A DNA stretch of 64,000 bases from IMG/VR virus record IMGVR_UViG_3300033121_002193, positions 71,486 through 135,485 of that record. One strand, 5' to 3'. The notes beneath the pieces were generated by a model. It worked only from the letters and a program-made list of their open reading frames with translations, searched no databases and had not been told where the DNA came from. Shown here in pieces: positions 1 through 55,043 of the stretch (the stretch's first letter is position 1; every line of letters begins with the position of its first letter). The translations under genes and the position numbers were made by a program. The DNA comes from a virus. Taxonomy: Duplodnaviria > Caudoviricetes.

Positions 1-309
1 GAAATTTTAGTAAACAAAAAAGATCCTCCAACAATAATAAGATTTAGCATTGCCCATGAATTAGGGCATATTATTCATAACGAACAAAATAAACAATTTG
101 TTTACCTAGATTATAGAAATCAATTGGCTAGTAATGGTACGGATCCACATGAAATATTTGCCAATCAATTTGCTTCTTGTTTGCTCATGCCTAAAAAAGA
201 TGTTGGAGCCGCTTTTAATTTCCTAAAATTATCTGAGCTTGCACAACATTTTGATGTTTCTGAACAAGCTATAAAATTTAGACTTTTAAATTTAAATATC
301 ATGAACTAG
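1..309 (+). CDS. ImmA/IrrE-family Zn metallopeptidase (5' end outside window)
   Basis: Frame 1 is open from base 1: ...RFSIAHELGHIIH (HExxH)...EIFANQFASCLLMP...LAQHFDVSEQAIKFRL, the typical ImmA/IrrE signature. Confidence 0.85.
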   Translation, partial: EILVNKKDPPTIIRFSIAHELGHIIHNEQNKQFVYLDYRNQLASNGTDPHEIFANQFASCLLMPKKDVGAAFNFLKLSELAQHFDVSEQAIKFRLLNLNIMN

Positions 310-358
310 AAGTGTTCGCTCAGCTTATGATATCAAAAATCACTAACCAAATTCCCTC

Positions 359-482
359 AAACGAACACTTTTCCCCTATAGAAATAATTGCTTTTATCAG
401 TCTTTTTATACAAATTTTAACTAAGTACTTGATTTTATTCACTTTGTATAAAAACGAACACTTTTCCCCTATAGAAATAATT
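359..482 (+). repeat. 31-bp perfect direct repeat (359-389 and 452-482)
   Basis: aaacgaacacttttcccctatagaaataatt occurs twice; a partial inverted copy aagtgttcg lies at 310-318. Confidence 0.9.
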
Positions 483-815
483 AAAACTAACAAATTCTAC
501 AAATAAACTCTCAATAATAACCAATTTCACAAAATAAAACTACACAAACAACACAATTCATAAACAACCATGCTGCGCTATTCATACAACTTTTACATTA
601 AGTACATTAAACATTCACAAACAACATAAATCAACAGCTTACTATCAACAATATACAATTGCTGTAATTAGCATTTCAATGTAATAAATCTATATATGAT
701 TTAAAGTGCGTATAAGGCGATTACAGACAAGTTGTTAATATGCCATAGTGGGATATGTAAAATTAAAATAGAGCGCTAGAAATATATGTTTTGTATATGT
801 GATGATTAGATATAG

Positions 816-970
816 GCAGGGGCAGGGGCCCCGCATTTCCCGCAAAAAAACCCCCTGGGTAGGTTACCCCCTATGCTGGCGCGACGTTTAAAGCTTTAAT
901 TTTTTGGCGTTACGGTGGGCAAGCCGGTTGTAACGAACGCTAATAGGGCTAGAATCAACGAACGCAGCGT
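816..970. other. GC-rich non-coding island with short palindromes
   Basis: ggggcccc, gggtaggttaccc and cgttac...gtaacg within an otherwise AT-rich, ORF-poor 1.1-kb stretch. Confidence 0.6.
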
Positions 971-1424
971 TACCAATCATACTATACGCATTATCTATAC
1001 AAACACATATAAAACGATTGTGACGCTTTTATATTAGTGACGCTTTTAATTTATCTATTAAGCAACTGGTATAATTGCAACATTATTATTCTTGCAATAG
1101 CAATATTCGGTATACGTAGCAAACGTAAGAATAAGCGCAACACATTGCACACAATAACATTATCTCATTTGCTTATCTTGTATTACTATGTATAATCGCT
1201 TTCATGGCTATATTGGGCAAATGTGTACGTTTAACAATATTTACTATTGATAGGTTTTATTTCAAATTATTATTATTTATATGTCTTCTATTAAAAATAA
1301 GGTGTGCACGAATGTTTTTTCAATAGGGGATTTTCTTTTTTGGATATTTAAGACAGATGAAGAAAGATGGGAAAATTATGATGAGAAAAATTGATTTTTT
1401 GAATAAATTTTTGTAGAATAAATT

Positions 1425-1622
1425 ATGCCTTATTCTTGTAAACGAAAAATATTAATATTGTTATTAGAGCAAATTGAAATTTATTCTGAATATTTGAAAG
1501 AACAATTAAAAAATTCTGAAGAATATGAACAACCAATTGAAATTTGTCAGCAATTGTTTTCTGAAATGAATAATTGTTTTAAAGATTTTAATCTTTTAAT
1601 TAAATCAGATGAATTAAAATAA
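1425..1622 (+). CDS. hypothetical protein
   Basis: 65-aa ORF, acidic and helical composition. Confidence 0.5.
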   Translation: MPYSCKRKILILLLEQIEIYSEYLKEQLKNSEEYEQPIEICQQLFSEMNNCFKDFNLLIKSDELK

Positions 1623-1773
1623 AAAAATGATAATATGTATAAGTTAAGGTGATGTTGGATTTTGGGGCGAAAACGAAACATTACATTTAAGGAGATGCAA
1701 GATTGAATGGGTTGGGAAAGAAGGTATATTTCTATCCGGTTTTAAATATATTTCAGAAAAAAAATATAATTAT

Positions 1774-2052
1774 GTGGAATGGTATTTGAAATATTTGTAT
1801 AGCACTAACTTAACTCAACAAAATACATTAACACAAGTTGAAACATGCGATGATGAAGAAAAGACAATTGTACTAGAACGTTATTATATAGATGAAAATG
1901 GTTTAAAACAAGGTTTGTTTGAACGGTTTTATAAAGACGGTCAAGTAAAAGAAAAATGCACCTACAAAAATGATCAGTTAATAACCAAAAGTGAAATTTT
2001 AATACAAGCACTAATTTTATTTTTCTTAAAAATAATTCATTCACTTACTTGA
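1774..2052 (+). pseudogene. truncated MORN-variant (YwqK-like) repeat gene
   Basis: Shares LTQQNTLTQ.ET..D..KT...ERYY.DENG with 2484..3557; about one repeat, then reads into the promoter repeat. Confidence 0.6.
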
Positions 2053-2146
2053 CACAAAAATTATTCGTGGTATTATTTGAATATAAGTTGATGGATGAAT
2101 GATTCAAACATTAACGAACAACGCTGAAAAAAAAAGAGAGATAAAA
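2036..2146 (+). promoter_or_regulatory. Promoter/stem-loop/leader repeat, copy 1
   Basis: TTGACA (2049-2054)-16 bp-TATTAT with extended TG; invariant leader gttgatggatgaatgattcaaacattaacgaacaacgctg(A)n. Confidence 0.9.
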
Positions 2147-2398
2147 ATGAATACTAATAAAGACAAAATTGAATTAATAAATGAACAAATTATATTAGCA
2201 AAACAAATTATGATTAAAAATAATCTTGAAAAAGATTGGGAAGCTGTTGTGACTTCTTTTAAATTGAATAAAAAATCTAAAGAATTATTTGGGTTTAATT
2301 TTTGTAAAATTAATACATACCAATTACATGAAACAATAAAAGATTCTTATTTTTATGCCGCAGAGCGAAAAGTTGAAGCTATCGTTAAAAATATATAG
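2147..2398 (+). CDS. hypothetical protein (cassette gene)
   Basis: ATG directly after repeat copy 1; the ORF-track start at 2099 lies inside the repeat. Confidence 0.7.
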   Translation: MNTNKDKIELINEQIILAKQIMIKNNLEKDWEAVVTSFKLNKKSKELFGFNFCKINTYQLHETIKDSYFYAAERKVEAIVKNI

Positions 2399-2483
2399 TT
2401 TAAATAGAGCAAGTGCTTTATACACACAAGGTCAATTACTCAAATATTAATAACCACCTCAAAACAAAAAGGAAAGATACAAA

Positions 2484-3557
2484 ATGTCAAATAATAACAC
2501 ACACTTAACTCAACAAAATACATTAACACAAATTGAAACATTTTACGATGAAGCAAAGACAAAAATACAAGAACGATATTATTTAGATGAAAATGGTTTA
2601 AAGCAAGGTATGTACGAATCATTTTACGAAAACGGGGTACTAAAAGTTAAATGCTTTTATAAAAATGGCAAATTAGATGGCCCATACGAGGAATTCTGCT
2701 ACAACAGTCAACCAGCAACTAAATGTACCTACAAAGACGATAAACGAGATGGTTTATACAAGTCGTTTTACGAAAACGGGGTACTAAAAGTTAAATGCTT
2801 TTATAAAAATGGCAAATTAGATGGTTTATATGAAGAGTTTTACGAAAATGGAAAGCTAAGAGAAAGATGTAATTATAAAAATGATAAACTAAATGGTTTA
2901 TATGAAGAGTTTTATGAAAATGGTCAATTAGAAATAAGATACACTTGCAAAGATGGTATATACGATGGTTTATATGAAGAGTTTTACGAAAATGGCAAGC
3001 TAAGAGAAAGATGTAATTATAAAAATGGTTTAAGACAAGGTATGTACGAATCATTTTACGAAAATAGTCAGCTAGAAAAGAAAGGCACCTACAAAAATGG
3101 CAAATTAGATGGTTTATATGAATGGTTTTACGAAAATGGCAAGCTAAAAGAAAGATGCACCTATAAAAATGATAAACTAAATGGTTTATTTGAAGAGTTT
3201 TATGAAAATGGTCAGTTAAGTGAAAGATGTAATTATAAAAATGATAAACTAAATGGTTTATTTGAAGAGTTTTATGAAAATGGCAAGCTAAGAGAAAGAT
3301 ACACCTATAAAAATGATAAACTAAATGGTTTATTTGAAGAGTTTTACGAAAATGGCAAGCTAAGAGAAAAATACACCTACAAAGATGATAAAAAAAAGGG
3401 TTTATATGAATCATTTCACATAAATGGGCAATTAAAAGCAAAATTTACCTATAAAGATGGGAAATTAGAAGGGGCGATCGAACAGTTTCTTGAAGATGGT
3501 AAAAAAATAGCAGAATATGCATACAAAGATGGCGACATACATATAAAAATAGAATAG
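2484..3557 (+). CDS. MORN-variant repeat protein (YwqK-like), about 13 repeats of 24 aa
   Basis: Repeats of GLYEEFYENGKLRERCxYKNDKL, with 72-bp tandem DNA units. Confidence 0.9.
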   Translation: MSNNNTHLTQQNTLTQIETFYDEAKTKIQERYYLDENGLKQGMYESFYENGVLKVKCFYKNGKLDGPYEEFCYNSQPATKCTYKDDKRDGLYKSFYENGVLKVKCFYKNGKLDGLYEEFYENGKLRERCNYKNDKLNGLYEEFYENGQLEIRYTCKDGIYDGLYEEFYENGKLRERCNYKNGLRQGMYESFYENSQLEKKGTYKNGKLDGLYEWFYENGKLKERCTYKNDKLNGLFEEFYENGQLSERCNYKNDKLNGLFEEFYENGKLRERYTYKNDKLNGLFEEFYENGKLREKYTYKDDKKKGLYESFHINGQLKAKFTYKDGKLEGAIEQFLEDGKKIAEYAYKDGDIHIKIE

Positions 3558-3603
3558 AAATACCATAATTTTAAACACTAATTTCACTTTTTTTTGAAAA
3601 TAC

Positions 3604-3712
3604 TTCATTCGCTTACTTGACACAAAAATCATTTGTGATATTATTTGAATATAAGTTGATGGATGAATGATTCAAACATTAACGAACAACGCTGAAAAAA
3701 AGAGAGATTAAA
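3604..3712 (+). promoter_or_regulatory. Promoter/stem-loop/leader repeat, copy 2
   Basis: TTGACA 3617-3622, TGaTATTAT, same leader. Confidence 0.9.
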
Positions 3713-4191
3713 ATGACAAATTTAAATACATACACAATCAAAAACACAAACAATCAAGTTATTTTTTCTGGTCAATTCAATTCATTCAAAGAATGTATAG
3801 AAACTGCCGTAGAAAGAAAAATTAATCTAGAAAGTGCTTATTTAGAAAGTGCTTATTTAGAAGGTGCTAATCTAGAAGGTGCCAATTTAGAAGGTGCTAA
3901 TTTAAGTTATGCTAATTTATACAAATGCAATTTAGAAAGTGCTAATTTAAAAGGTGCTAATTTAGAAAATTCTAATTTAGAACATGCTAATTTAGAAAAT
4001 GCTGATTTATACAAATGCAATTTAGAAAGCGCTAATTTACAAGATGCTGTTTTAGAAAATGCTTATTTACAAAATGCTAATTTAGAAGGTGCTGAGTTAT
4101 ACAAATGCAATTTAGAACATGCTAATTTAGAACATGCTAATTTAATGTTGCCAATTTAAAAGGTGCAAAGCTAGCAAATGTAAAATTTTAA
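3713..4191 (+). CDS. pentapeptide-repeat protein, frameshifted near the C-terminus
   Basis: A(N/Y)LExx repeats; the ORF stops at 4159 but ANLKGAKLANVKF* continues in another frame to 4191. Confidence 0.85.
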
Positions 4192-4236
4192 TACAAAAAA
4201 CAACTAACTAGAGACAATTAGAATGAGATGATTAAA

Positions 4237-4485
4237 ATGACAAACACGAACAATAACACAAACTTAACCAAAATTGAAAAATGTGTTGATTATGCAAAAA
4301 CAACTGTTAAATTTAAATACTATATAGATAAAAATGGCTTAAAACAAGGCTTATATGAATTGTTTTGCGAAGATGGTCAGCTAGACGAACGATGTACTTA
4401 TAAAAATGACGATTTACACGGCATATTAGAATTGTTTGACAATCAAGGAAAATTTGAATTTAGCTGTAACTACTATACCAAATAA
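4237..4485 (+). CDS. short MORN-variant repeat protein
   Basis: YYIDKNGLKQGLYELFCEDGQLDERCTYKN. Confidence 0.75.
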   Translation: MTNTNNNTNLTKIEKCVDYAKTTVKFKYYIDKNGLKQGLYELFCEDGQLDERCTYKNDDLHGILELFDNQGKFEFSCNYYTK

Positions 4486-4496
4486 ACCATAAACAA

Positions 4497-4991
4497 ATGA
4501 AAACTACAATATTAACATTTCTAATATTAATAAGCGTAATAAATATTTTACATGCACAAACTTCAATTAATGCTTTTATTTTGAATTGTAACGATGGGGA
4601 CACTTGTAAAATGAAAGTCAATAATCAAATTATCAAAATTAGATTAGTTGGCATTGATGCCCCAGAGTTAAAACACGGGAAAAAAACAGCACAACCTTAT
4701 GCGCAAAAAAGCAAAAACGAATTGAACAACTTAATTAAAGATAAAAATGTATTGGTTAAATTATACAAAAAAGATATATATAAAAGATATTTAGGCGAAA
4801 TATTTTATAAAAATATTAACGTAAATCTAAAAATGCTAGAAATAGGCGCTGCCGAAGTTTACAGGGGTAAAAACGAAAAATCAATTGATTTAAATACATA
4901 TATCGAAAAAGAAAACGTAGCCAAGCAAAATCATATTGGCATATGGAATAACAAAAACTATGAAAGCCCCTTTATTTTTAGAAAAAAATAA
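4497..4991 (+). CDS. thermonuclease (SNase-like) with N-terminal signal/TM segment
   Basis: DGDT, IRLVGIDAPE, DIYKRYLG and GIW motifs. Confidence 0.92.
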   Translation: MKTTILTFLILISVINILHAQTSINAFILNCNDGDTCKMKVNNQIIKIRLVGIDAPELKHGKKTAQPYAQKSKNELNNLIKDKNVLVKLYKKDIYKRYLGEIFYKNINVNLKMLEIGAAEVYRGKNEKSIDLNTYIEKENVAKQNHIGIWNNKNYESPFIFRKK

Positions 4992-4998
4992 AAAAATC

Positions 4999-5111
4999 TT
5001 CATTCACTTGCTTGACATAAAAATCATTTGTGGTATTATTTAAATATAAGTTGATGGATGAATGATTCAAACATTAACGAACAACGCTGAAAAAAAAGAG
5101 AAATATTACAC
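4999..5111 (+). promoter_or_regulatory. Promoter/stem-loop/leader repeat, copy 3
   Basis: TTGACA 5012-5017, TGgTATTAT, same leader. Confidence 0.9.
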
Positions 5112-5591
5112 ATGAAAACATACGAAATCTTAAACACAAACAATGAAGTTATTTTTTCTGGTCAATTTAATTCATTTAAAGAATGTGTTGCAGCCGCTAC
5201 CCAAAATGGTATTGATTCACCTGGCAAATATTACAAAACTTTTTATGACAATGGCCAATTAAAATCAAAATTTATCTACTTAGATAATACTGTAGATGGT
5301 TTATATGAATCTTTTTATAACAATGGTCAGTTAAGTTTAAAATGCACATACAAAGATGGTAGACTAGACGGATTATATGAAAGTTTTTGGGAAAATGGTA
5401 ACATTGAAATAAAATGTACATACAAAAACGGCAAAAAAAATGGTTTTTATGAAAGATTTCACGAAAATGGACAATTAGCAATAAGATGCACATTTGTAGA
5501 TAACAGAAAAGAAGGGATGTGTGAAGCGTTTCATGAAGATGGAAAAGTAAGTATAAAAGGATCATACAAAAATAACATATATATATTTTAA
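5112..5591 (+). CDS. chimeric MORN-variant repeat protein
   Basis: N-terminus MKTYEILNTNNEVIFSGQFNSFKECV is shared with the pentapeptide genes and is followed by MORN-like repeats. Confidence 0.85.
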   Translation: MKTYEILNTNNEVIFSGQFNSFKECVAAATQNGIDSPGKYYKTFYDNGQLKSKFIYLDNTVDGLYESFYNNGQLSLKCTYKDGRLDGLYESFWENGNIEIKCTYKNGKKNGFYERFHENGQLAIRCTFVDNRKEGMCEAFHEDGKVSIKGSYKNNIYIF

Positions 5592-5645
5592 TATAAAAAT
5601 CAAACCAACATAAACTAGAGATAATTTAAAACGGGAGATACTAAT

Positions 5646-5867
5646 ATGACAAATTTAACAGTAACACAAAGATTAACTTTAGAAATAACTTCACTTGTAA
5701 AAACATTTGATAATTACACAGTAGAAACCGAACAAGATTTAATTAAAAAAGAAGTTTGTAGAAGGATCGCTGTTTCATCTGCTAAAATTGCACACTATGC
5801 AAACAACGGCAAAATTGCACATGCAGAGATTGAAGAATTAAAAAATATAGCGGATGTTTTTTCTTAA
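5646..5867 (+). CDS. hypothetical protein
   Basis: 73-aa ORF with GGGAG RBS. Confidence 0.7.
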   Translation: MTNLTVTQRLTLEITSLVKTFDNYTVETEQDLIKKEVCRRIAVSSAKIAHYANNGKIAHAEIEELKNIADVFS

Positions 5868-5873
5868 AAATAA

Positions 5874-5984
5874 TTCATTCACTTACTTGACATAAAAATC
5901 ATTTGTGGTATTATTTAAATATAAGTTGATGGATGAATGATTCAAACATTAACGAACAACGCTGAAAAAAAGAGAGAGATAAAA
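5874..5984 (+). promoter_or_regulatory. Promoter/stem-loop/leader repeat, copy 4
   Basis: TTGACA 5887-5892, TGgTATTAT, same leader. Confidence 0.9.
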
Positions 5985-6425
5985 ATGAAAACATACGAAA
6001 TCTTAAACACAAACAATCAAGTTATTTTTTCTGGTCAATTCAATTCATTCAAAGAATGTGTTGAAACTGCTGTAGAAAGAAAAATTTCTTTAAAAAATGC
6101 TAATTTAGAAGGTGCTAATTTAAGATATGCTAATTTACAAGATACCAATTTAGAAAATGCTAATTTAAGATATGCTAATTTAAGATATGCTAATTTAGAA
6201 CGTGCTAATTTACAAGATGCCAATTTAGAAGGTGCTAATTTAGCACGTGCCAATTTAGAAAATGCTAATTTAGAACGTGCTAATTTAAGATATGCTAATT
6301 TAGAACGTGCTAATTTAGAACGTGCTAATTTAGAACGTGCTAATTTAAGATATGCTAATTTAGAACGTGCTAATTTAGAACGTGCTAATTTAGAACGTGC
6401 TAATTTATTAAATATAAATTTTTAA
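5985..6425 (+). CDS. pentapeptide-repeat protein
   Basis: More than 20 ANLxx repeats, with 15-bp tandem units gctaatttagaacgt / gctaatttaagatat. Confidence 0.92.
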   Translation: MKTYEILNTNNQVIFSGQFNSFKECVETAVERKISLKNANLEGANLRYANLQDTNLENANLRYANLRYANLERANLQDANLEGANLARANLENANLERANLRYANLERANLERANLERANLRYANLERANLERANLERANLLNINF

Positions 6426-6459
6426 TAAAAAAACTAATTTCACTTTTTTTTGAAAATAA

Positions 6460-6569
6460 TTCATTCACTTACTTGACACAAAAATCATTTGTGATATTAT
6501 TTAAATATAAGTTGATGGATGAATGATTCAAACATTAACGAACAACGCTGAAAAAAAGAAAGATAAAAA
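6460..6569 (+). promoter_or_regulatory. Promoter/stem-loop/leader repeat, copy 5
   Basis: TTGACA 6473-6478, TGaTATTAT, same leader. Confidence 0.9.
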
Positions 6570-6954
6570 ATGACAAATACAAACAATAGTACAAACTTAA
6601 AATTAATTGAAACATTTTACGACAAAGCAAAGACAATTATAAAAGAACGATATTACATAGATGAAAATGGCTTTAGACAAGGTATGTACGAAGAGTTTTA
6701 CGAAAATGGAAAACTTAAAACTAAATGCACATTTAAAGATGATAAAATGGAATCTCTATCTGATCATTTTTATAAAAATGATCAGATAGAGATTCATGCT
6801 CTATTCGAATTATTTAAAGAGTATAGCAGATATTGTAAAAAGATGCACCTATAAAGATGATAAATTAGATGGTTTGTATGAATCGTTTTGCGAAGATGGT
6901 CGGTCTTATATGAAATTCACTTATGAAAATGGTCAGTTAATAACAAAAATTTAA
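6570..6954 (+). pseudogene. MORN-variant repeat gene with frameshift at about 6840
   Basis: The ORF stops at 6854; RCTYKDDKLDGLYESFCEDG...QLITKI* continues in another frame to 6954. Confidence 0.75.
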
Positions 6955-7019
6955 ATATGGTATTTTAAAATAAATGTGGCACATGTGACTTTTTTTTTAA
7001 CGTAAGAATTTAACCAAGT

Positions 7020-7250
7020 TTAAATCGTAATAGCTTGTATTATTAGCAACGGCCAGTCAGCAAAGAGGGTTTAAATGTCATGTACCTATTAGACGAACAA
7101 TACACACAGACGCCGTTTTATGGTGTCTTGCGAATGACTACTTATTTAAGGCGGCTTGGGTACGCGATTAACGAAAAGCACGTACAGCGCTTGCTTAGAG
7201 AAATGGGATTGTTTTCTATTTACACAAAGACTAATTTAAGTAAGCAAAAT
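7020..7250 (+). mobile_element. IS3-family transposase (OrfB N-terminal) remnant
   Basis: LNRNSLYY*QRPVS...LDEQYTQTPFYGVLRMTTYLRRLGYAINEKHVQRLLREMGL; internal stop, no DDE domain. Confidence 0.8.
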
Positions 7251-7736
7251 CAAATTAAAATGTCTTTTTCAAGACACAAACATTCTTATTATTGCACATA
7301 TCCGCAACTATACCTGCTACATTTGTCTAGCATTAAATGTACATGGCCAGATATTGTAAAAACACTATGCTTCAAAAATCATTTTAAAAGCCATTTTACG
7401 CATTTTGTTTTGCACATCTATAGCTTGGCATTGCTTATGATGTTTTCATCTATTAAACTGGCAATAAAGCGCTTTATTTTATGTATATTTGCTGTTGTTT
7501 GTGTAAGATGTGATAAAATTTTATACAATATATATAAAAATACCATAAAACAAAAGATGACGCACAGAGAGATACCACAACAACAAAGTAAATAAAAAAA
7601 TATAATAGTGTTTTTTACACAATATTACAATGGTGTTTTGTGTGTACAATTATCTTTTGCAAGAAACGAATATGTGGAACAAAAAAAGTCTTAATCTAAA
7701 TTATTGATATTACTTTCTTATAAAAGATAATAAACT

Positions 7737-7952
7737 ATGAATATAAAAAAATATAATTCTATTTTTAAAAAAAACAAAAATACAAAGATAAATAAACTTT
7801 CTAAAAATAAAAAACACAAACCTAAAAATCAAGCGGCAGTTACTTTGGGAAAATTAGGCGGAAAAGTTGGCGGTCCAGCAAGAGATAAGTCGTTGCCAAA
7901 AGCGAGAAAAATAGAAATTGCAAAACTTGGCGCCAAGCATAGATGGAAATAG
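7737..7952 (+). CDS. small basic (histone H1-like / nucleic-acid-binding) protein
   Basis: KNQAAVTLGKLGGKVGGPAR...RKIEIAKLGAKHRW matches a widespread small basic family. Confidence 0.7.
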   Translation: MNIKKYNSIFKKNKNTKINKLSKNKKHKPKNQAAVTLGKLGGKVGGPARDKSLPKARKIEIAKLGAKHRWK

Positions 7953-8154
7953 ATAAAATATTTTGTAAAACAAAAAAAATGCTTGAGCGCTCAAGCTAAG
8001 TGTATATTTTTTTGAATTCATTTTAATCATAAGCACAAACGTATTATTTATATGACTTGTATAAAGCATGTTCTTTGTCAAATATTTTTAACACGATAGA
8101 AAAAAAATAAAAATCAAGAGGCATCAAAAAAAAACAAAACATTAATAAATCAAC

Positions 8155-8182
8155 TTGACTTATTTGTTTCATTCGATATGAT
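8155..8182 (+). promoter_or_regulatory. sigma70-like promoter for the tRNA
   Basis: TTGACT-16 bp-TATGAT. Confidence 0.55.
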
Positions 8183-8199
8183 TTTTTTGATATTAATAT

Positions 8200-8272
8200 T
8201 CCGACTTAGCTCAGCTGGTAGAGCAGGTGACTGTTAATCATCGGGTCGCAGGTTCGATTCCTGCAGTCGGAG
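8200..8272 (+). tRNA. tRNA-Asn (GTT), CCA not encoded
   Basis: Acceptor stem TCCGACT/AGTCGGA, D arm agctcagctggtagagc, anticodon loop ctGTTaa, T loop GTTCGATTC. Confidence 0.95.
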
Positions 8273-8312
8273 TTTTTTGTTGTAATTGAGATATTTATAA
8301 TGGAGAAAAAAA

Positions 8313-8699
8313 ATGGAACAAATTGATGATACCGAAATAAAATCAACAATAAAATTAAAAAAAGAAACACTTGAAATAGAATTAAAAGATTTATGTAAAA
8401 AAATAGATGCAATACAAAAAGAATTAAACAAATATAATTCTCTTTTAAAAATATTAAATCAACAAGAACCAATTCAAGATTCAAGACAAGCGAAGCAAGT
8501 GAGAATAAAAATATTATTAGATAATTTAAAAACAAACGAAACCATTACACGAAAAAAAATAGAGTCAATTTTATCAAACAATCAGTTATCTGTAAATTCA
8601 TATGTATTAACCAATTACATTCATCATTTAAAAAAGCACAATTTTTTTACGCAAACCAGCAGAGGACTATTTAAATACACAGGAAAAACAATTGAATAA
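8313..8699 (+). CDS. hypothetical protein (coiled coil plus possible wHTH)
   Basis: GGAG RBS; C-terminal SRGLFKY resembles a wing motif. Confidence 0.6.
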   Translation: MEQIDDTEIKSTIKLKKETLEIELKDLCKKIDAIQKELNKYNSLLKILNQQEPIQDSRQAKQVRIKILLDNLKTNETITRKKIESILSNNQLSVNSYVLTNYIHHLKKHNFFTQTSRGLFKYTGKTIE

Positions 8700-8758
8700 T
8701 TAACCGAATAATATTTAAATAAACTTAATCATATAGTTGTTAATAAAAAGGCGCATAT

Positions 8759-9562
8759 ATGATTAAAATACCAGAAGAAAACAAACATTTTTCTAAAAAA
8801 TCTTTAGTACAAACATTAAAGAATACACAACCAATCCCATTTCCTGTTCCAAAAAAAAACAATATTCCTAAGACTTTTATATTAGCAATAGGAGTAGACG
8901 GTTTTGATAAGGAAAATCAATTATTTTTTGCAGCTAAAGACGCACAAGATTTTGCTGATAAAATCGCATTAAACAATTCAAGAAAACAAACTTTTAGTAT
9001 TGTATTAAAAAACAATTACGCGACTAATATAAGTATCATGTCTGCGTTTAAATGGATTGAACAAAGTGCAGAAGAACAAGATGATGTTCATATCTTATTT
9101 TCTGGACATGGCACTGTTGATTTTGCAACTTTAAGATATTATTTTTTGTCTTATTCTCCAAAACAAAAACTTACATCCGACAGTTTATTGTCTGATGTTT
9201 GGATATCCAGTCTAATTGGAAATATCAAAGGAAACGTTAGATTTTTTCTAGATAGTTGCTTTAGTAATAATTTCAATGACTATTTAATTAATTATCACCC
9301 TAAAATAAAATCACAACAATTATCTTCTTATTCTTCTTCTTTGTCTTGGAAAATGTCATACGAAAATATTCCGTTTAAAAATGGTTTTTTTACCAAATCT
9401 ATTTTAAATGCGTTAGATAGAAATCAATATATTTTCAAATATACTAAACAAACAGAAAAGCAATTAGGCCTAAGGCTTGATTGGAATCTTTTTGAATTAA
9501 GCAAAGGACTTCAAGGCTCTGGATTTTTTTATTGTACACAGCAACAACAAAAAATAAAATAA
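8759..9562 (+). CDS. caspase-like protease (peptidase C14)
   Basis: LAIGVD, KDAQDF, catalytic FSGHG and LDSCFS motifs. Confidence 0.88.
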   Translation: MIKIPEENKHFSKKSLVQTLKNTQPIPFPVPKKNNIPKTFILAIGVDGFDKENQLFFAAKDAQDFADKIALNNSRKQTFSIVLKNNYATNISIMSAFKWIEQSAEEQDDVHILFSGHGTVDFATLRYYFLSYSPKQKLTSDSLLSDVWISSLIGNIKGNVRFFLDSCFSNNFNDYLINYHPKIKSQQLSSYSSSLSWKMSYENIPFKNGFFTKSILNALDRNQYIFKYTKQTEKQLGLRLDWNLFELSKGLQGSGFFYCTQQQQKIK

Positions 9563-9572
9563 CATGTTTTAT

Positions 9573-9638
9573 TTGCAATGCAATTTTATGTGTGATATAC
9601 TTGTCTCATAAAACGCTGAAAAAAAAAGAGAGATAAAA
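9573..9638 (+). promoter_or_regulatory. partial sixth copy of the leader repeat with its own promoter
   Basis: TTGCAA...TGaTATACT, then aacgctgaaaaaaaaagagagataaaaATG identical to the 3' end of copy 1. Confidence 0.7.
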
Positions 9639-10247
9639 ATGAATTTAAAAAATATAATTACATTATTAATATTACTAACAAGCATTAATTGTAATGGTAT
9701 TTCAAAAATAAAATTAAAATACTATGATTCAAATTCTGAAAATGAACAGATGTTATTATTAGATAGCGCAAAGAAGTTTAATGCTCTTATCGGTTGTGAG
9801 GCAGTAACTTTAGAACATGTAGAAAAAACAAAAGAAGCGATTATTGGCAACGGAATTTCTGAAATTCAAATATTAGAATCAAATGTCATGAATATTTTGG
9901 CTGAAAAATCAGCGGCAGCATATGGAATAGACAAAGCAGCTGCAGTTACTTTTTTTGAAGATGATGATGTGTTTATCTCTAGACATAAATTAACGGATTG
10001 TTATTATGAAGACTTTGGACAGTGTGTTTATCTTAAAATAGACATTGTGTTTTTTCATGAAATTGGGCATGTATTTGGATTAATGCATAGTGAAAATGAA
10101 AGCGATATTATGAATAAAATACCGGCAAACAAACATTCTGCTAATGATTTTATTGATTTTATTAATCAGTTACAAACAAAAACAAATATTTGTGATAAAA
10201 AAATAAATACTAATACGTTTTTAACAATACAGAGAGATAAACAATGA
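9639..10247 (+). CDS. matrixin-like (metzincin) metalloprotease, probably exported or a lipoprotein
   Basis: HEIGHVFGLMH, Met-turn DIM, hydrophobic N-terminus ending in Cys. Confidence 0.85.
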   Translation: MNLKNIITLLILLTSINCNGISKIKLKYYDSNSENEQMLLLDSAKKFNALIGCEAVTLEHVEKTKEAIIGNGISEIQILESNVMNILAEKSAAAYGIDKAAAVTFFEDDDVFISRHKLTDCYYEDFGQCVYLKIDIVFFHEIGHVFGLMHSENESDIMNKIPANKHSANDFIDFINQLQTKTNICDKKINTNTFLTIQRDKQ

Positions 10248-10684
10248 AAATAACAAATGATGAAAAAACTTTAATAACTAAAGAAGAACAAACATGGCCA
10301 CCTGAATATTGTGAAGTATATCTTGTTGATGAAAACAATTATGGAACTATTTTTTTTCGTGAAGAAAAAACTATAATTATAAAAGAACACGATAAAGAAC
10401 AAAAAATACCAATTGATAATATCATCGGTCAATATTGGGTTCCGACTTGTGAAAAAAGAATCTCTGGGATATGGTATCTTACAAATGTTGATATTATCTT
10501 ACCTAGAAAAAACCTTTGGTTATATAGAAAACATTATAATGAAAAATATCCAACAAAAAAACAGCTGGCTGTTTATGATGAATGTTTAGCTGCATGGCTT
10601 ATTGGAAATTCAGAATATAATCACGGTGAACTTCAAGATGACTTTGATTATTATCAAATAGTACAAGAACCAAATGATCCTTAA
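10244..10684 (+). CDS. hypothetical protein
   Basis: 146-aa ORF coupled by ATGA overlap. Confidence 0.65.
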   Translation: MKITNDEKTLITKEEQTWPPEYCEVYLVDENNYGTIFFREEKTIIIKEHDKEQKIPIDNIIGQYWVPTCEKRISGIWYLTNVDIILPRKNLWLYRKHYNEKYPTKKQLAVYDECLAAWLIGNSEYNHGELQDDFDYYQIVQEPNDP

Positions 10685-10785
10685 TTAACAGCTGAATTAA
10701 TTAAATCAAAGGAAAATTATGCAATTAATATTAACAGAAACATTTTGGGATTTACATAGATTTAAACTAAAAGAACGCTATTACA

Positions 10786-11286
10786 TTGCTCGAGTTACAA
10801 AAGCTCATGTATTTTATGCAAGAGACGGGAGAGCCTTTGAAGCTCCACTTTAAAAAAGCGCTATATGGACCATATGCTGAAAACCTAAGGCATGTGCTCA
10901 ACTATATTGAAGGGCATTTTGTCAGTGGTTATCTTGATGGCGGCGATGATCCGACCAAGCCTTTAGAACTCAAGCCCAACGCTGTTCAAGAAGCGGAGCT
11001 TTACCTCAAAAATCACCCTGCAACCAATGAGCGGTTGGAACGGGTCACCCAGCTTATTCAAGGATTTGAGACGCCCTACGGAATGGAGCTATTGTCTACA
11101 GTTTATTGGATAGCCAAAGATAAAAATGTGTTGGATGCAGAACAGGTCGTTAATGAATTTCATAATTTGAACGAGCGTAAACGCATGTTTAGTAGCGAGC
11201 ATATTATGGTTACCCTAAAAACACTTCGTATTAAGCATTGGATAAAATCGTTATCAATTAAATTCGGAAGGAGAAGAAATTCATAA
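10786..11286 (+). CDS. DarG antitoxin C-terminal domain, truncated copy 1 (possibly a pseudogene)
   Basis: LQKLMYFMQETGEPLKL..KALYGPYAENLRHVL..IEGH...GFETPYGMELLSTVYW; TTG start only. Confidence 0.7.
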   Translation: MLELQKLMYFMQETGEPLKLHFKKALYGPYAENLRHVLNYIEGHFVSGYLDGGDDPTKPLELKPNAVQEAELYLKNHPATNERLERVTQLIQGFETPYGMELLSTVYWIAKDKNVLDAEQVVNEFHNLNERKRMFSSEHIMVTLKTLRIKHWIKSLSIKFGRRRNS

Positions 11287-11288
11287 AA

Positions 11289-11489
11289 ATGAAAATTTTA
11301 CTAGACATAAAACCTGCCAAAGACAATTACTGTGGAGATGGGAACGGTAATTTTTGTCCTTTTATGTTAAAAAGGAAATTTGGCACAATCCCATTCTGTT
11401 CCGTTTTCGATAAGGATTTGCCAATAACAAATAGAAAAATAACCAGGCTAGAAGAATGCGTTTGTTCCACAGCGAGTGGATTGTTATAA
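11289..11489 (+). CDS. small Cys-rich hypothetical protein
   Basis: 66-aa ORF with spaced cysteines. Confidence 0.6.
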   Translation: MKILLDIKPAKDNYCGDGNGNFCPFMLKRKFGTIPFCSVFDKDLPITNRKITRLEECVCSTASGLL

Positions 11490-11618
11490 AGAAAGTTAAT
11501 TTTATGCTATTAACAGAAATAAGAGACTACATTGCTTCAAATGCCGAGAATATTTTGTTCCACCCGTCAGATATGGTTGGGAATGAGATAAAATTTTAAT
11601 AATAAGAAGGGACTATAT

Positions 11619-12083
11619 ATGTATGTTGTTGAAGATTTAAATAAACTTGCGAGTTTGCTTGGTCGATTCAGGATTGACAGACTTACAGTATATCTAAATA
11701 AATATGATTTGTATGAAGCCCAGAAAAACATAGGCGATAAAATTGTATACCCTATTGTTGTATGGGGAAAAAATAATATTTTTACGACTGGAACTCTACA
11801 CATCAAAGGAGTAGAAGAACAAGACAATGAATCAATCTCCGACGGAGTTAGCTTTGATCATTTCATCCCTCTACCAAGTCTATGCTTAAATCCATCCAAT
11901 GAGCACCCCGATAGCGTAGAGTATAGGACAAAAACGACTATAAATGGAGTCCAATATTGTGCATCAACAATTTTGCCAACAGACTTCATCAAAAATGAGG
12001 GAGACATAAACGCCATCCGCCAAGTGCATAAAGAAAAAATATTAAAATCAGTTTTAGAAAAATCAAAAGATGGCTATACATAG
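11619..12083 (+). CDS. hypothetical protein
   Basis: 154-aa ORF with AAGGGA RBS. Confidence 0.65.
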   Translation: MYVVEDLNKLASLLGRFRIDRLTVYLNKYDLYEAQKNIGDKIVYPIVVWGKNNIFTTGTLHIKGVEEQDNESISDGVSFDHFIPLPSLCLNPSNEHPDSVEYRTKTTINGVQYCASTILPTDFIKNEGDINAIRQVHKEKILKSVLEKSKDGYT

Positions 12084-12223
12084 TATGCAATTTTATCGGT
12101 ATGGTTCTTGTTATGGTGTGAGTTTGGACATTATAAATTTATTAAGGCAATAGGAAGCAAGTGGGCGCCAATGCCAAAATTTCCAGCGAATGAACTAGAT
12201 TTAAAATGAGCTAAGTTTTTTAG

Positions 12224-12445
12224 ATGGACGGAGATCCCATGATGAAAAATAAAGAACACCAAAGCTTATGGACGGTGATAAAAAAATCAGGCCTATTTTC
12301 TCAGAACCCAGTTAGAATGACATATGAAATATCATATGAACAATTAATGATATTATGTGAAATACTGAATGGGCCTGGGAATAGAAAAACACTGCGAAGA
12401 AAAATAATAAAGATGTTTAGGCCAATAAAATGCGAAAAACAATAG
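12224..12445 (+). CDS. hypothetical protein
   Basis: 73-aa ORF; the start may be at the MM after GGAG. Confidence 0.55.
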   Translation: MDGDPMMKNKEHQSLWTVIKKSGLFSQNPVRMTYEISYEQLMILCEILNGPGNRKTLRRKIIKMFRPIKCEKQ

Positions 12446-12552
12446 GTGTGAAATGTGTACGCCTGTACCATTAGCGCCGATTGATTAGGCAACATTATGA
12501 TAGGGGATTAGATGAGAATGTTGAAAATTTTAACAACAAGAAGAGATTCCAT

Positions 12553-13173
12553 ATGTGTGTTGCTGAAGATTTAAATAAAGAGAATTTTGCCGAACGGCAG
12601 ATCCCGGAGATGACCATCGGCCACGCAGCACTAGTAATGCTAATGCGTCGTTATTTAAGCGCCTTGATGGATCCAACTATTACATTGCTCGAGTTACAAA
12701 AGCTCATGTATTTTATGCAAGAGACGGGAGAGCCTTTGAAGCTCCACTTTAAAAAAGCGCTATATGGACCATATGCTGAAAACCTAAGGCATGTGCTCAA
12801 CTATATTGAAGGGCATTTTGTCAGTGGTTATCTTGATGGCGGCGATGATCCGACCAAGCCTTTAGAACTCAAGCCCAACGCTGTTCAAGAAGCGGAGCTT
12901 TACCTCAAAAATCACCCTGCAACCAATGAGCGGTTGGAACGGGTCACCCAGCTTATTCAAGGATTTGAGACGCCCTACGGAATGGAGCTATTGTCTACAG
13001 TTTATTGGATAGCCAAAGATAAAAATGTGTTGGATGCAGAACAGGTCGTTAATGAATTTCATAATTTGAACGAGCGTAAACGTATGTTTAGTAGCGAGCA
13101 TATTATGGTTACCCTAAAAACACTTCGTATTAAGCATTGGATAAAACCAGTATTATGTAGCAGCTACACCTAA
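12553..13173 (+). CDS. DarG antitoxin C-terminal (toxin-binding) domain without macrodomain, copy 2
   Basis: IPEMTIGHAALVMLMRRYLSALMDPTITLLELQKLMYFMQ...; the ATG 12553 context is homologous to the start of 11619. Confidence 0.8.
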   Translation: MCVAEDLNKENFAERQIPEMTIGHAALVMLMRRYLSALMDPTITLLELQKLMYFMQETGEPLKLHFKKALYGPYAENLRHVLNYIEGHFVSGYLDGGDDPTKPLELKPNAVQEAELYLKNHPATNERLERVTQLIQGFETPYGMELLSTVYWIAKDKNVLDAEQVVNEFHNLNERKRMFSSEHIMVTLKTLRIKHWIKPVLCSSYT

Positions 13174-33526: not shown

Positions 33527-33844
33527 TTAAATCCATTTTATTTCTATAATTGGTTTTATTTTTATGTTCTGCAACCAAAAATCGTATGAATCTCTTAAGT
33601 TTTTTTCATATGTTGAGTTATTCTTGTTATAAAATATTTTAGAAAACATACCATATAATCCATTTTTTTTTGATAGACTTATTACAATCTTATTTTCGTC
33701 AAAACAAACTTCACAATTTTTTGCTTGAGGAAAACAAACTAGTGGTATCAATGTTAAATTCTGCATAACAATTGGATCTATTGCTTGTGTGATCAGCTGC
33801 ATTTCAAATATTTGTTTTAATTTTTGTTTTAACTCACTTTTCAT
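33527..33844 (-). CDS. hypothetical protein
   Basis: 105-aa ORF in operon. Confidence 0.6.
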   Translation of the reverse strand: MKSELKQKLKQIFEMQLITQAIDPIVMQNLTLIPLVCFPQAKNCEVCFDENKIVISLSKKNGLYGMFSKIFYNKNNSTYEKNLRDSYDFWLQNIKIKPIIEIKWI

Positions 33845-53466: not shown

Positions 53467-54009
53467 ATGCAAAACTTTGAGATTTTAGAGTCTTCTTATT
53501 TAAATGAAATAAAAACCTATGATGGAAAAATAATTAAACTCGAATTAAAGAAAACAAATTATGCAGAAGAAAGAATTTCAGATATTCAAACAGCAAATCC
53601 AGAAACTTTACCAGAATTAACAGCTGTTTTCTTAAACAGTTGTTATGAATTAAATTATGCAATAGGTATTTTATCCACTCAATTGGCATTAACAAAACAT
53701 CAAAAAGAATTAGTGGCGTCACACACGTTAATAGAAAAAGTGCCAATTCTTATAGAGCAATCAAGACAAAGATCTTCTGAAGATTTAAGAAGTGCTTTTA
53801 TTGAAATCGATGAAAATTATAAAAAATATAAAGAAATTGGTTTGCTTTTAGATAGTGTTTGTTCTAATTTGAAAGACAGAAGAAAAGTAATAGAAATGGC
53901 TTATTTTTCTTGTCAAAAATTAGCTGAATTGAAAAAGTTAAAAATCAGTACAGCTTCTTATCAATATGGCAATTTTGATGAAATAACCGCAGGAAGTGAA
54001 ATTACATGA
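53467..54009 (+). CDS. hypothetical protein (possible UvsY-like recombination mediator)
   Basis: Helical protein directly upstream of recA. Confidence 0.4.
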   Translation: MQNFEILESSYLNEIKTYDGKIIKLELKKTNYAEERISDIQTANPETLPELTAVFLNSCYELNYAIGILSTQLALTKHQKELVASHTLIEKVPILIEQSRQRSSEDLRSAFIEIDENYKKYKEIGLLLDSVCSNLKDRRKVIEMAYFSCQKLAELKKLKISTASYQYGNFDEITAGSEIT

Positions 54010-55043
54010 GTTTAAAAGAAAATTTTGGAAGTTTAATAAAAAAAACAGGCGCAGTTACAGAAATACATAATCCTTTTAATGAGATAATAAAAAGCAATAG
54101 TCCTAGTTTAAATTGGATTTTTGGCAATACACACGGGATGCCGCTTGGTTATACTGTAGCTTTTTGGGGTCCACCTAAAAGTGGAAAAACTTTAATTATA
54201 AATGATTTTATTAGTCGTCTTCATTTGGATGATCTAGATGCCATGGTAGTTCGTTTTGATACAGAAATGAGAAGTCAATTACAAAAAAACATGTATAACA
54301 TTGATGATAATAGACTTCTTACTATTGAAACGAATGATCCTGTTGAAATTTTTGATACAATAGAAAAGGATATAACAAGCGAAATTCAAAATAAGAAAAA
54401 AATAAAAGTTATTGTTATTGATTCTATCAATGCAATAAGAGGAAGACGTTCTTTTAAGTCAGAAAGTATTGATGATATAAATATTGGAGATTTAGCATTA
54501 ACTTTGCAAGAAGGTTTTCAACGTATAGTTCCTATTATTCGTCGTTATAAAATTGCATTAATGTGTACTGTGCAAGCTCGTGCTGAATTCGATCAAATAG
54601 AAAAAATGAGAGGAAAGAACACAAAGCCTGCTTTACCAAAAGGCACACATCATTTGATCGAATATATTGTAAAGGTAGAAGAGAATCAAAAAAAAGATAG
54701 TCAAATTGTTGATAATGAAAAAACAGATATGGCAAATAAAAATGCCATCATTGGACATAAAATAAAAGCAATCATGGAACATTCTTCATGTTCACCAAAA
54801 GGTAGAACGGCAGAATTTACCATTGATTATACAAAAGGTATTATAAAAATAGGCGAAGAAGTGGCGACTTTAGCTACAAATCAACAAGTTTTTAATAGGC
54901 CAAATAATAGAACATATGAATTTGAAGAGCATGTTTTTCATAGCAGAGATTCGTTAATCGATGCATTAGAAAATAATGTTGAGCTAAGAGATAAAGTGAT
55001 AAACAGTTTAAAACAAAAAGATTTAAATACTATCAGGCTATAA
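54006..55043 (+). CDS. recA: RecA/UvsX-like recombinase
   Basis: SLNWIFG..GMPLG, GPPKSGKT, FDTE and VIDSI motifs. Confidence 0.9.
   Translation: MSLKENFGSLIKKTGAVTEIHNPFNEIIKSNSPSLNWIFGNTHGMPLGYTVAFWGPPKSGKTLIINDFISRLHLDDLDAMVVRFDTEMRSQLQKNMYNIDDNRLLTIETNDPVEIFDTIEKDITSEIQNKKKIKVIVIDSINAIRGRRSFKSESIDDINIGDLALTLQEGFQRIVPIIRRYKIALMCTVQARAEFDQIEKMRGKNTKPALPKGTHHLIEYIVKVEENQKKDSQIVDNEKTDMANKNAIIGHKIKAIMEHSSCSPKGRTAEFTIDYTKGIIKIGEEVATLATNQQVFNRPNNRTYEFEEHVFHSRDSLIDALENNVELRDKVINSLKQKDLNTIRL

Follow-up and report, generated by a model that had tools for sequence, protein, structure and literature searches.

Five near-identical units of ~110 bp head successive gene cassettes in an uncultured phage, and close relatives differ in cassette content exactly at these units. 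We consider it likely that the units are lineage-specific expression modules that double as homologous-recombination crossover points for accessory cassettes. The window, i.e., the whole stretch of DNA that was analysed (64,000 nucleotides), belongs to a 135-kb contig that is linear and incomplete. The contig is that of a phage, unrelated to the T4-type phages; the sole GenBank phage match to its terminase is Myxococcus phage Mx1 (31%).

All units are built in the same order: promoter, leader with hairpin and ACGCTGAAA, A-tract, GA-rich ribosome site and ATG. A sequence-only reading of the window had listed five such elements; all five copies are present, with a 49-nt leader free of mismatches in each, and its statement that each element heads a cassette of one to three genes is borne out by the ORF layout. 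For the partial sixth copy that it placed at ~9610, the last ~30 nt of the unit are indeed present, but the promoter there is a different one. The features are as follows, in window coordinates unless the contig is named.

2036..2146, plus strand: unit 1 (-35 at 2049-2054; TG and -10 at 2071-2076; ATG at 2147)
2085-2133, plus strand: leader of unit 1 (hairpin 2087-2115; ACGCTGAAA at 2121; then the A-tract and the GA-rich ribosome site)
3604..3712, plus strand: unit 2 (-35 at 3617; -10 at 3639-3644; leader 3653-3701; ATG at 3713)
4999..5111, plus strand: unit 3 (-35 at 5012; -10 at 5034-5039; leader 5048-5096; ATG at 5112)
5874..5984, plus strand: unit 4 (-35 at 5887; -10 at 5909-5914; leader 5923-5971 with hairpin 5925-5953; ATG at 5985)
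6460..6569, plus strand: unit 5 (-35 at 6473; -10 at 6495-6500; leader 6509-6557; ATG at 6570)
9612..9638, plus strand: translation-start part only (ACGCTGAAA, A-tract and GA-rich site; no full unit), with the different promoter-like site TTGCAA-17-TATACT upstream at 9573
9639-10247, plus strand: secreted M10-like metalloprotease gene, headed by the part at 9612
Contig 58755-58826, 12.7 kb upstream of the window: diverged unit copy (promoter and altered hairpin), heading a Tad2-like anti-defence gene

The promoter TTGACA-16-TATTAT with a TG extension is found in all five units and matches the sigma-70 consensus at 11 of 12 positions. The units are the top five promoter matches within the first 12 kb, and the 135-kb contig holds six such sites in all, five of which are the units. 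Runs of T and A lie within 30 nt ahead of each unit, forming an AT-rich tract upstream of the -35 hexamer. The 52 nt before the leader contain 10 variable sites, none of them in the -35 hexamer, the TG or the -10 hexamer. Nothing terminator-like was found at any cassette end, and no stem-loop terminator precedes the promoters, the 75 nt ahead of each folding with z from +0.6 to -1.95. We read the units as promoter-leader modules, with promoter activity and timing predicted from the consensus.

Several finer points of the sequence-only reading fared differently. All four combinations of its two G/A sites are indeed present, yet this is a weak sign of exchange between copies, since with five sequences and sites 9 nt apart recurrent mutation explains the pattern equally well. 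The imperfect inverted repeat said to flank the promoter (11/15) is at chance level, with 226 of 500 shuffles equally good, and as DNA the repeat has no inverted-repeat structure that is significant beyond the small hairpin. The second conserved spacer is real, yet has exactly two copies in the contig, at 4206 and 5613.

In the mechanism that we propose, each repeat would be one copy of a lineage-specific expression module with a near-consensus host-type promoter (sigma-70, extended -10). The transcript would begin with a short 5'UTR. Within its first ~30 nt an AU-rich hairpin may form, at 3-5 nt from the predicted 5' end, and the conserved ACGCUGAAA, the A-tract, a GA-rich Shine-Dalgarno site and the start codon follow. 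Such modules would drive accessory genes of the variable region, most likely via host RNA polymerase, and expression would therefore be early, or constitutive from a prophage. The products would be solenoid proteins of the MORN_2 and pentapeptide types, ORFans and a secreted nuclease, with the Tad2-like gene served by the diverged copy. In addition, the modules may act as crossover points for general homologous recombination, because they are direct repeats of ~110 bp with 92-100% pairwise identity over the whole unit; cassettes would thus be gained, lost and replaced there, and related genomes would differ at these places. The gene content of the array is given below.

1774..2052, plus strand: truncated MORN-type gene running into unit 1, with N- and C-terminal coding parts paralogous to the last array gene
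2147..3557, plus strand: cassette 1, an 83-aa ORFan (2147-2398) and a 357-aa MORN_2 repeat protein (2484-3557)
3713..4991, plus strand: cassette 2, a pentapeptide-repeat protein (3713-4159, 3' end apparently frameshifted), a short MORN_2 protein (4237-4485) and a staphylococcal-nuclease homologue with signal peptide (4497-4991)
5112..5867, plus strand: cassette 3, a 159-aa protein (5112-5591) in which the N-terminal module of pentapeptide proteins is fused to MORN_2 repeats, and a 73-aa ORFan (5646-5867)
5985..6425, plus strand: cassette 4, a 146-aa pentapeptide-repeat protein
6570..6954, plus strand: cassette 5, a MORN_2 gene interrupted by a ~110-nt insert that contains a 20-bp perfect palindrome (6750-6795)

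The neighbourhood of the array also contains IS remnants, a GmrSD-like gene and an M78 peptidase.

Related genomes, where the sequence-only reading had suggested looking for cassette variation, do show it, and cassette content is not invariant. The comparison set consisted of independent ENA and Logan metagenome contigs, which are short (1-3.3 kb). Three contigs from three assemblies (L013, L017 and L018) match the window without a mismatch over 1641, 925 and 929 nt, respectively, up to 5971, the final leader base of unit 4, and are unrelated to it from 5972. In this haplotype (H2), ORFans of 92 and 100 aa replace the pentapeptide gene after unit 4, followed by a diverged unit with a 226-aa MORN gene and then by a further unit with a pentapeptide gene. 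A fourth contig, L024, has the 92/100-aa cassette too, free of mismatches over 627 nt, but there it follows a different pentapeptide gene; the L024 leader differs at 7 of 54 sites, and its cassette equals that of L013 from the A-tract onward. Homology breakpoints vary: in L013 the break follows the A-tract, and L024 has breaks at the -10 and at the A-tract. Since the same cassette stands 100% identical behind another gene in a further assembly and a breakpoint falls at a unit, cassette content varies at the repeats. The haplotypes, of which only three were seen, differ by replacement with diverged alleles rather than by a single clean deletion or insertion, so that a single event cannot be reconstructed. 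G001 and G002, two further relatives, differ in gene content around the array region as well.

Repeats of this kind could mislead an assembler, and the array or its variants might then be artefacts. Indeed, five contigs (L014, L015, L016, L017 and L018) end inside units, as expected at graph branches, and the window-specific part 5972-6757 has no second assembly among the compared contigs, which leaves some chance of a chimeric join. Independent ENA and Logan contigs, however, reproduce 3767-5971 and 6758 onward at 100%, and four contigs, drawn from at least three samples, show H2. For H2 such a join is unlikely, given that these independent contigs agree, and the private substitutions in the L024 leader mean that it was not joined through an identical repeat. 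We regard the artefact as very improbable.

The same comparison bears on a plain expansion of paralogues, in which the upstream regions were co-duplicated with tandem copies of the MORN and pentapeptide genes and took no part in later rearrangement. Most cassette genes do fall into two paralogous families that share N-terminal modules, and the gene ahead of unit 1 is a paralogue of the last array gene. Such an origin would leave unexplained, however, why unrelated ORFans stand behind units (83 aa in the window, 92 aa in L013), or a Tad2-like gene behind the diverged copy. The units are 92-100% identical, whereas the genes behind them are unrelated or, between paralogous cassettes, just 67-91% identical in the adjoining coding DNA. 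Moreover, the block of perfect identity between strains stops exactly at a unit, and one cassette is found with two different neighbours. Taken together, we consider co-duplication alone an improbable account and prefer expression modules that also serve as crossover points.

The leader is the most uniform part of these modules. Its 49 nt occur five times without a mismatch (0 expected in shuffles), and it has 0 variable sites in 49, against 10 in the 52 nt that precede it (Fisher p = 0.0013). The predicted hairpin (-9.4 kcal/mol, z = -4.1) is AU-rich, lies in the 5'UTR and has no U-tail; a perfect 5-1-5 palindrome, TGAATGATTCA, is found in its loop region. The hairpin shows no covariation (no double changes, 4 changes to wobble pairs, 5 of 110 cells broken), and it is missing in the homologous leaders of G002, a relative with 66% terminase identity in which the promoter and the first transcribed bases are kept. 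The window has six occurrences of the motif ACGCTGAAA (0.43 expected), and 20 kb of G002 have five (0.16 expected); all are in gene sense, and in both most lie 15-29 nt before a start codon. The motif is enriched, in a strand-specific manner, upstream of starts in G000, G001 and G002. The translation-start part before the protease gene at 9639 is conserved in G001, while the preceding ~40 nt are ~70% identical. As this part alone heads the protease gene, it would seem to be a separable module. The hairpin probably serves mRNA stabilisation or regulator binding, and ACGCUGAAA may be a translation or processing signal.

Such conservation could also be purely regulatory, the leader (perhaps TGAATGATTCA) being the operator or RNA site of one regulator under purifying selection, with recombination incidental. 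The leader is indeed significantly more conserved than the promoter spacer, ACGCTGAAA is kept both in G002 and in the orthologous comparison with G001, and the hairpin loop region has the perfect palindrome. In H2, on the other hand, the leader does vary, with 2-7 changes in units b and c of L013 and in the leader of L024; absolute constraint is therefore insufficient to account for five identical copies within one genome, and homogenisation or recent copying is needed too. The strain differences at the units are likewise left unexplained. Regulation alone is thus quite unlikely to be the full account, but it is compatible with the preferred reading and not exclusive of it. A combined and rather speculative variant is that ACGCUGAAA, with or without the hairpin, is the site of a dedicated phage or host post-transcriptional factor (a translation activator or repressor, or a processing nuclease) that co-ordinates an accessory and counter-defence regulon. 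Gene conversion would homogenise the leaders, and incoming cassettes would be wired in at once. If true, this would be a combined system for plug-in expression and shuffling rather than passive homology.

The phage also encodes proteins of recombination type, listed below.

54006..55043, plus strand: phage-encoded RecA-like recombinase
46293-48416, minus strand: SbcC/Rad50-like gene
33834-34862, minus strand: Mre11-like phosphoesterase gene

The recombination pathway would be a general homologous one. The cassette-like layout of the array could instead point to a site-specific mobile system, be it integron-like, MITE-like or made of serine-recombinase cassettes, with the units as its ends or attachment sites. 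The contig does carry several IS elements and a serine-recombinase-like ORF (contig 1246-2067), the N-terminal motif of which was judged by eye only. The array is integrase-free, as the sequence-only reading had held: none of 15 array and flanking ORFs has an integrase domain in a Pfam scan, and no recombinase-sized ORF adjoins it. Terminal inverted repeats are at chance level, target duplications are absent and the breakpoints lie at different places in the unit. Furthermore, each cassette has its own 5' promoter, unlike the promoterless, attC-bearing cassettes of integrons, which are served by an adjacent integrase with attI. A site-specific system is therefore highly doubtful. On the other hand, to call the array a dedicated platform goes beyond the evidence, since the same pattern arises wherever a recombination-proficient phage recombines at 100-bp direct repeats of any sort.

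Under the preferred reading of expression modules with a crossover role, cassette exchange at repeated regulatory modules, known in T4-type phages, would extend to a lineage without a close cultured relative, with a module of different design (promoter, 5'UTR hairpin and start-associated motif versus terminator and promoter). The cargo is relevant to phage-host conflict, as it comprises MORN_2 and pentapeptide solenoids, whose N-terminal modules have been swapped, together with a secreted nuclease; the Tad2-like anti-defence gene under a sister promoter adds to this interest. The units could mark the fast-evolving accessory genes of this phage lineage, and ACGCUGAAA offers a concrete candidate, open to testing, for a new signal in translation or processing.

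Among known systems, the host-takeover module of Bacillus phage SPO1 consists of small early genes with several strong host-type promoters and ribosome sites. The array resembles it as a cluster of small genes served by several host-type promoters with strong ribosome sites, but to our knowledge the SPO1 promoters are not near-identical 110-bp units sharing a leader, and no relation in sequence is expected. The SPO1 module has been cited as comparable to promoter-early stem-loops (PeSLs; PMC2839356).

The start-associated part of the unit recalls the SAS and ESAS of Cluster K mycobacteriophages (Pope et al. 2011, PMC3203893). The SAS has a 13-bp consensus, is located 3-7 bp ahead of the start codon and includes the Shine-Dalgarno site (PMC3203893). 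The motif described here may be of a comparable kind, as a short asymmetric sequence in one orientation before the starts of non-structural genes of different families, kept across diverged relatives, and a role in translation is proposed for both; a subset of the SAS, the ESAS, has an inverted repeat just upstream, as the hairpin here precedes ACGCUGAAA. However, ACGCUGAAA lies 15-29 nt upstream of the start with a separate Shine-Dalgarno site, its sequence does not match the 13-bp SAS consensus, its copies are far fewer, and the SAS has no tie to repeated promoters or cassette exchange.

The other parallel proposed by the sequence-only reading, the PeSLs, is known from the T4-type phages RB49/phi1, T4/PST and KVP40/nt-1 (Arbiol et al. 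2010, PMC2839356; Comeau et al. 2014, PMC4122927). Their stable stem-loop, usually GGGG...CCCC, lies upstream of the promoter and terminates upstream transcription (PMC2839356), and recombination between flanking motifs forms mini-circles (PMC2839356, PMC4122927). Much of the parallel stands: a composite motif, in which an AT-rich tract precedes a strong sigma-70-like promoter, is repeated mainly within a variable region rich in ORFans and non-essential genes. It bounds insertions, deletions and replacements between close relatives, and homologous recombination would act with no dedicated recombinase known. The units are nevertheless not PeSLs in the strict sense, because an upstream terminator is absent and the hairpin lies downstream of the promoter. 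In place of a GC-rich terminator, these units, in a phage unrelated to T4-likes, carry an AU-rich 5'UTR hairpin without a U-tail and a conserved translation-start module (ACGCUGAAA, A-tract and Shine-Dalgarno site), and they head cassettes of one to three genes that include solenoid repeat proteins.

Near-identical genomes of this phage carry different cassettes after the same promoter-leader unit, and their blocks of identity end at the unit. The array (window 2036-6954) holds five of these ~110-bp units, confirmed at the starts that the sequence-only reading had assigned to them, each heading a cassette. The units, their cargo and the related sites are as follows:

Window 2036, unit 1: 83-aa ORFan and 357-aa MORN_2 protein
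Window 3604, unit 2: pentapeptide-repeat protein, short MORN_2 protein and staphylococcal-nuclease homologue with a signal peptide
Window 4999, unit 3: 159-aa protein and 73-aa ORFan
Window 5874, unit 4 (which includes ACGCUGAAA, the hairpin and the A-tract): second pentapeptide-repeat protein
Window 6460, unit 5: broken MORN_2 gene
Window 2121, 3689, 5084, 5959, 6545 and 9613: leader motif ACGCTGAAA
Contig 60373, minus strand: leader motif ACGCTGAAA
Retrieved contig L026, 4599-19473, minus strand: leader motif ACGCTGAAA
Contig 58749-59116 (1495-1862 of the upstream piece L006), 12.7 kb before the window: diverged unit copy and Tad2-like gene

Exact-protein look-ups in independent ENA and Logan assemblies recovered short contigs that belong to this phage population (L013, L014 and L023 from ERZ27309396 and ERZ27309394; L017 and L018 from ERZ28655916 and ERZ28656156; L015 and L019 from SRR32380191; L024 from SRR14234068). 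Window 3767-5963 and 6758-9641 are reproduced at 100% by L014, L015, L016 and L019, and the look-ups gave no second assembly for window 5972-6757. A second haplotype (H2), seen in L013 (3334 bp), L017 and L018, matches the window haplotype (H1) without mismatch over 1641, 925 and 929 nt, respectively, in a block covering the nuclease gene, unit 3, cassette 3 and unit 4. Identity stops at window 5971, the final base of the invariant leader, and the sequences are unrelated from 5972. Behind unit 4, H2 carries a 92-aa and a 100-aa ORFan, a 226-aa MORN gene headed by a diverged unit, and a pentapeptide gene headed by a further unit; L023 is consistent with this arrangement. A third haplotype (H3), on L024 from a different run, has the same 92/100-aa cassette with no mismatches over 627 nt, a stretch that begins at the A-tract and reaches into the next unit. 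The L024 leader has changes at 7 of 54 positions, and 5' of the -10 box a different pentapeptide gene takes the place of the promoter. Since H2 and H3 share this identical cassette and differ in their upstream DNA, one cassette stands behind two different neighbours. The sequence-only reading had proposed that related genomes be searched for changes at the repeats, and cassette content does vary there, between H1 and H2 at window 5971/5972 and in the neighbour of H3. The comparison contigs are short, and since diverged alleles replace one another between haplotypes, single events cannot be reconstructed.

The units themselves are highly uniform. Whole units are 92-100% identical in pairwise comparison, and each has TTGACA, a 16-nt spacer, TG, one base and TATTAT. 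Ranked as promoter matches, they take the top five places in the first 12 kb, and of six sites of such quality on the entire contig they make up five. The 49-nt leader occurs in five copies with 0 mismatches, shuffled sequences giving none, and the hairpin proposed for it indeed folds (7 bp, 2x2 internal loop, 4 bp, 3-nt loop; -9.4 kcal/mol, z = -4.1). It is followed by ACGCTGAAA (9 nt), an A-run of 7-9, a GA-rich ribosome site and the ATG. The suspected sixth copy at 9612 retains the part from ACGCTGAAA through A-run and ribosome site to the ATG; the rest of the unit is absent and another promoter-like site lies upstream. The gene behind it encodes a secreted M10-like metalloprotease. The diverged copy outside the window (contig 58755-58826) combines the promoter with an altered hairpin, lacks ACGCTGAAA and heads an 84-aa Tad2-like (Thoeris anti-defence 2) gene (PF11195, E = 6e-22). 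The second spacer motif was found exactly twice, at 4206 and 5613. The 15-nt inverted repeat described around the promoter is a weak observation, as its 11 of 15 matching positions are equalled by 226 of 500 shuffles.

How the units are conserved bears on their origin. The 52 nt 5' of the leader contain ten variable positions among the five copies, none of them in the -35 hexamer, TG or -10 hexamer, whereas the 49-nt leader contains none at all (Fisher p = 0.0013 against the preceding 52 nt). Directly 3' of the units, homologous coding DNA has 67-91% identity and the remaining coding DNA is unrelated, so that the units are not simply young duplicates. Either extra constraint acts on the leader or the copies are being homogenised. 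Further copies in related DNA do carry changes in their leaders, and constraint alone is therefore insufficient to account for five identical leaders in one genome. The earlier argument for exchange, from two polymorphic sites in all four combinations, is weak, resting on two sites in five sequences.

Of the hairpin cells across ten copies, 95.5% are paired and five are broken. Four wobble changes but no double change occur, and the covariation count is no different from shuffles. Two hairpin changes in L024 leave G-U pairs where a DNA palindrome would be broken, which mildly favours an element acting at the RNA level, while one L013 copy breaks two hairpin pairs. The hairpin is thermodynamically plausible and evolutionarily unproven. 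Stem-loops at the 5' terminus of transcripts can serve as 5' stabilisers, and the location of the predicted hairpin, 3-5 nt from the predicted 5' end, would fit such a role. An AUG within the hairpin starts a short upstream frame (window 2099-2146, 5937-5984 and the equivalent place in the other units), which is in frame with the gene in units 1, 4 and L013 and stops at, or overlapping, the gene's ATG in units 2, 3 and 5. Gene callers took this AUG, so annotated N-termini in public assemblies are 16 residues too long; the frame is probably incidental to the A-rich leader. In H2, a strong AU-rich hairpin (L013 2191-2236; -12.9 kcal/mol, z = -6.1), of a kind that the window copies do not have, precedes one unit and could be a terminator-like element of that variant.

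The motif ACGCTGAAA reaches beyond the array. It occurs six times in the window against 0.43 expected, and five times in 20 kb of the relative G002 against 0.16 expected, a count reached by 0 of 200 shuffles. Its orientation is always gene sense, mostly 15-29 nt 5' of the start codon of accessory genes. G002 has a terminase identity of 66%, a syntenic core and different genes in the variable region, where two promoters match the units in -35, TG, -10 and first transcribed bases without the hairpin. The closer relative G001 is 95% identical to the window across 21.6 kb and stops ~2.5 kb downstream of the array (equivalent of window 9399), short of the array itself. It keeps the translation-start module 5' of the protease gene, the preceding ~40 nt being only ~70% identical. 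Before a GmrSD-like gene, the window and G001 both have a form of the motif that is one base shorter, and the G002 orthologue has the full motif in front of it. Because of this enrichment before starts in the window, G001 and G002, including places without the hairpin, ACGCTGAAA is a lineage-wide start-associated signal, independent of promoter and hairpin. Its reading as a -35-like promoter box was rejected, as the nearest -10-like hexamer lies ~13 nt away and transcripts would start inside the gene.

The cargo also points to exchange of modules. In the 159-aa protein of unit 3, MORN_2 repeats follow the same N-terminal module as in the pentapeptide proteins. This ~30-residue module thus sits on MORN_2 repeats at 5112-5200 and on pentapeptide repeats at 5985-6075 and 3713-3810, with 79-91% nucleotide identity among the three genes, pointing to in-frame module swapping; among 5.8 billion proteins it had one distant match only. 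No terminator-like hairpin was found between cassettes, and read-through along the array is therefore likely. Several genes in and near the array are damaged. The unit 5 MORN_2 gene is split into two frames by a ~110-nt insert (window 6740-6850) with a 20-bp perfect palindrome and 6-nt loop (6750-6795), which may be a small palindromic element or a rearranged repeat. The pentapeptide gene at 3713-4159 has apparently lost its last ~12 codons by a 1-nt frameshift in an A-run (window 4130-4195), not an assembly error of the window since L015 has the identical sequence. Further downstream (compare window 10719-13173), the MORN-type gene of G001 (L011) is intact, and a single copy of a GC-richer gene without Pfam match comes after it. 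The MORN gene of the window breaks off after ~22 codons, where a truncated second copy of the GC-richer gene (10786-11286) cuts into it, and ~1.2 kb of extra genes lie between the two copies.

We propose that each unit serves accessory genes as an expression module, transcribed by the host RNA polymerase. Through their length and identity the units would also be substrates for general homologous recombination, for which the phage itself encodes RecA-like and SbcCD-like proteins. Where crossovers at the units are unequal or join different genomes, cassettes would be added, deleted or replaced, and where homology reaches the shared N-terminal coding module (91% between 5107-5198 and 5980-6071), MORN and pentapeptide bodies could be swapped in frame. 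The earlier interpretation of the array as a site of cassette exchange is largely supported by the comparative evidence on cassette differences, although some of its supporting details were not significant and the recombination mechanism is a proposal.

The linear 135,485-bp IMG/VR record has a CheckV completeness of 84% and a GC content of ~27%. A large block of tail and head genes lies on the minus strand of the contig, which further encodes a ribonucleotide reductase, DnaB-like helicase, chaperonin and ParA-like ATPase as well as the recombination genes (RecA-like, SbcC/Rad50-like and Mre11-like phosphoesterase). Because its terminase has a single match among 50,697 GenBank phage records (Myxococcus phage Mx1, 31% identity), we place the phage in an uncharacterised lineage. 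The IS1595 transposase, used as a host marker, gave no host from GTDB genome contigs and only 'Bacteria, commonest Pseudomonadota' from the protein atlas; the sample accessions did not lead to a host in the literature either. Directly 3' of the array lies an IS3-type transposase remnant (HTH_21 only; window 7080-8273 region) and then tRNA-Asn(GTT) at 8199-8273, an order also present in Logan contig L019. This tRNA was the only Rfam match at E <= 1 in window 1-12000, with no riboswitch, ribozyme or known leader, which also argues against a ribozyme-target reading. For the leader itself, exact searches with 42-, 29- and 26-nt degenerate patterns gave no match in IMG/VR, JGI metagenome contigs or GTDB genome contigs, and blastn of the array against GenBank phages returned only low-complexity pentapeptide-repeat similarity (Staphylococcus and Listeria phages). 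Exact-protein look-ups were without match for the 83-aa and 99-aa forms, the 146-aa and 162-aa pentapeptide forms and the 357-aa MORN protein, as were IMG/VR and JGI metagenomes for the H2 100-aa ORFan.

Among known systems, an integron is ruled out: no integrase adjoins the array, attC-like ends are lacking, and every cassette is headed by a promoter of its own. The start-associated sequences of Cluster K mycobacteriophages (SAS/ESAS) follow a logic similar to that of ACGCTGAAA with an optional upstream inverted repeat, but are unlike it in sequence and in distance to the start codon (PMC3203893). The promoter-early stem-loops (PeSLs) of T4-type phages have in common with the units a promoter, an AT-rich tract, a location among ORFans and motif-bounded differences between relatives. 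In PeSLs, however, the stem-loop lies upstream of the promoter and acts as a GC-rich terminator (PMC2839356), whereas the units have no upstream terminator and the window phage is not T4-like. By analogy, the unit would work like a PeSL but is not a PeSL.
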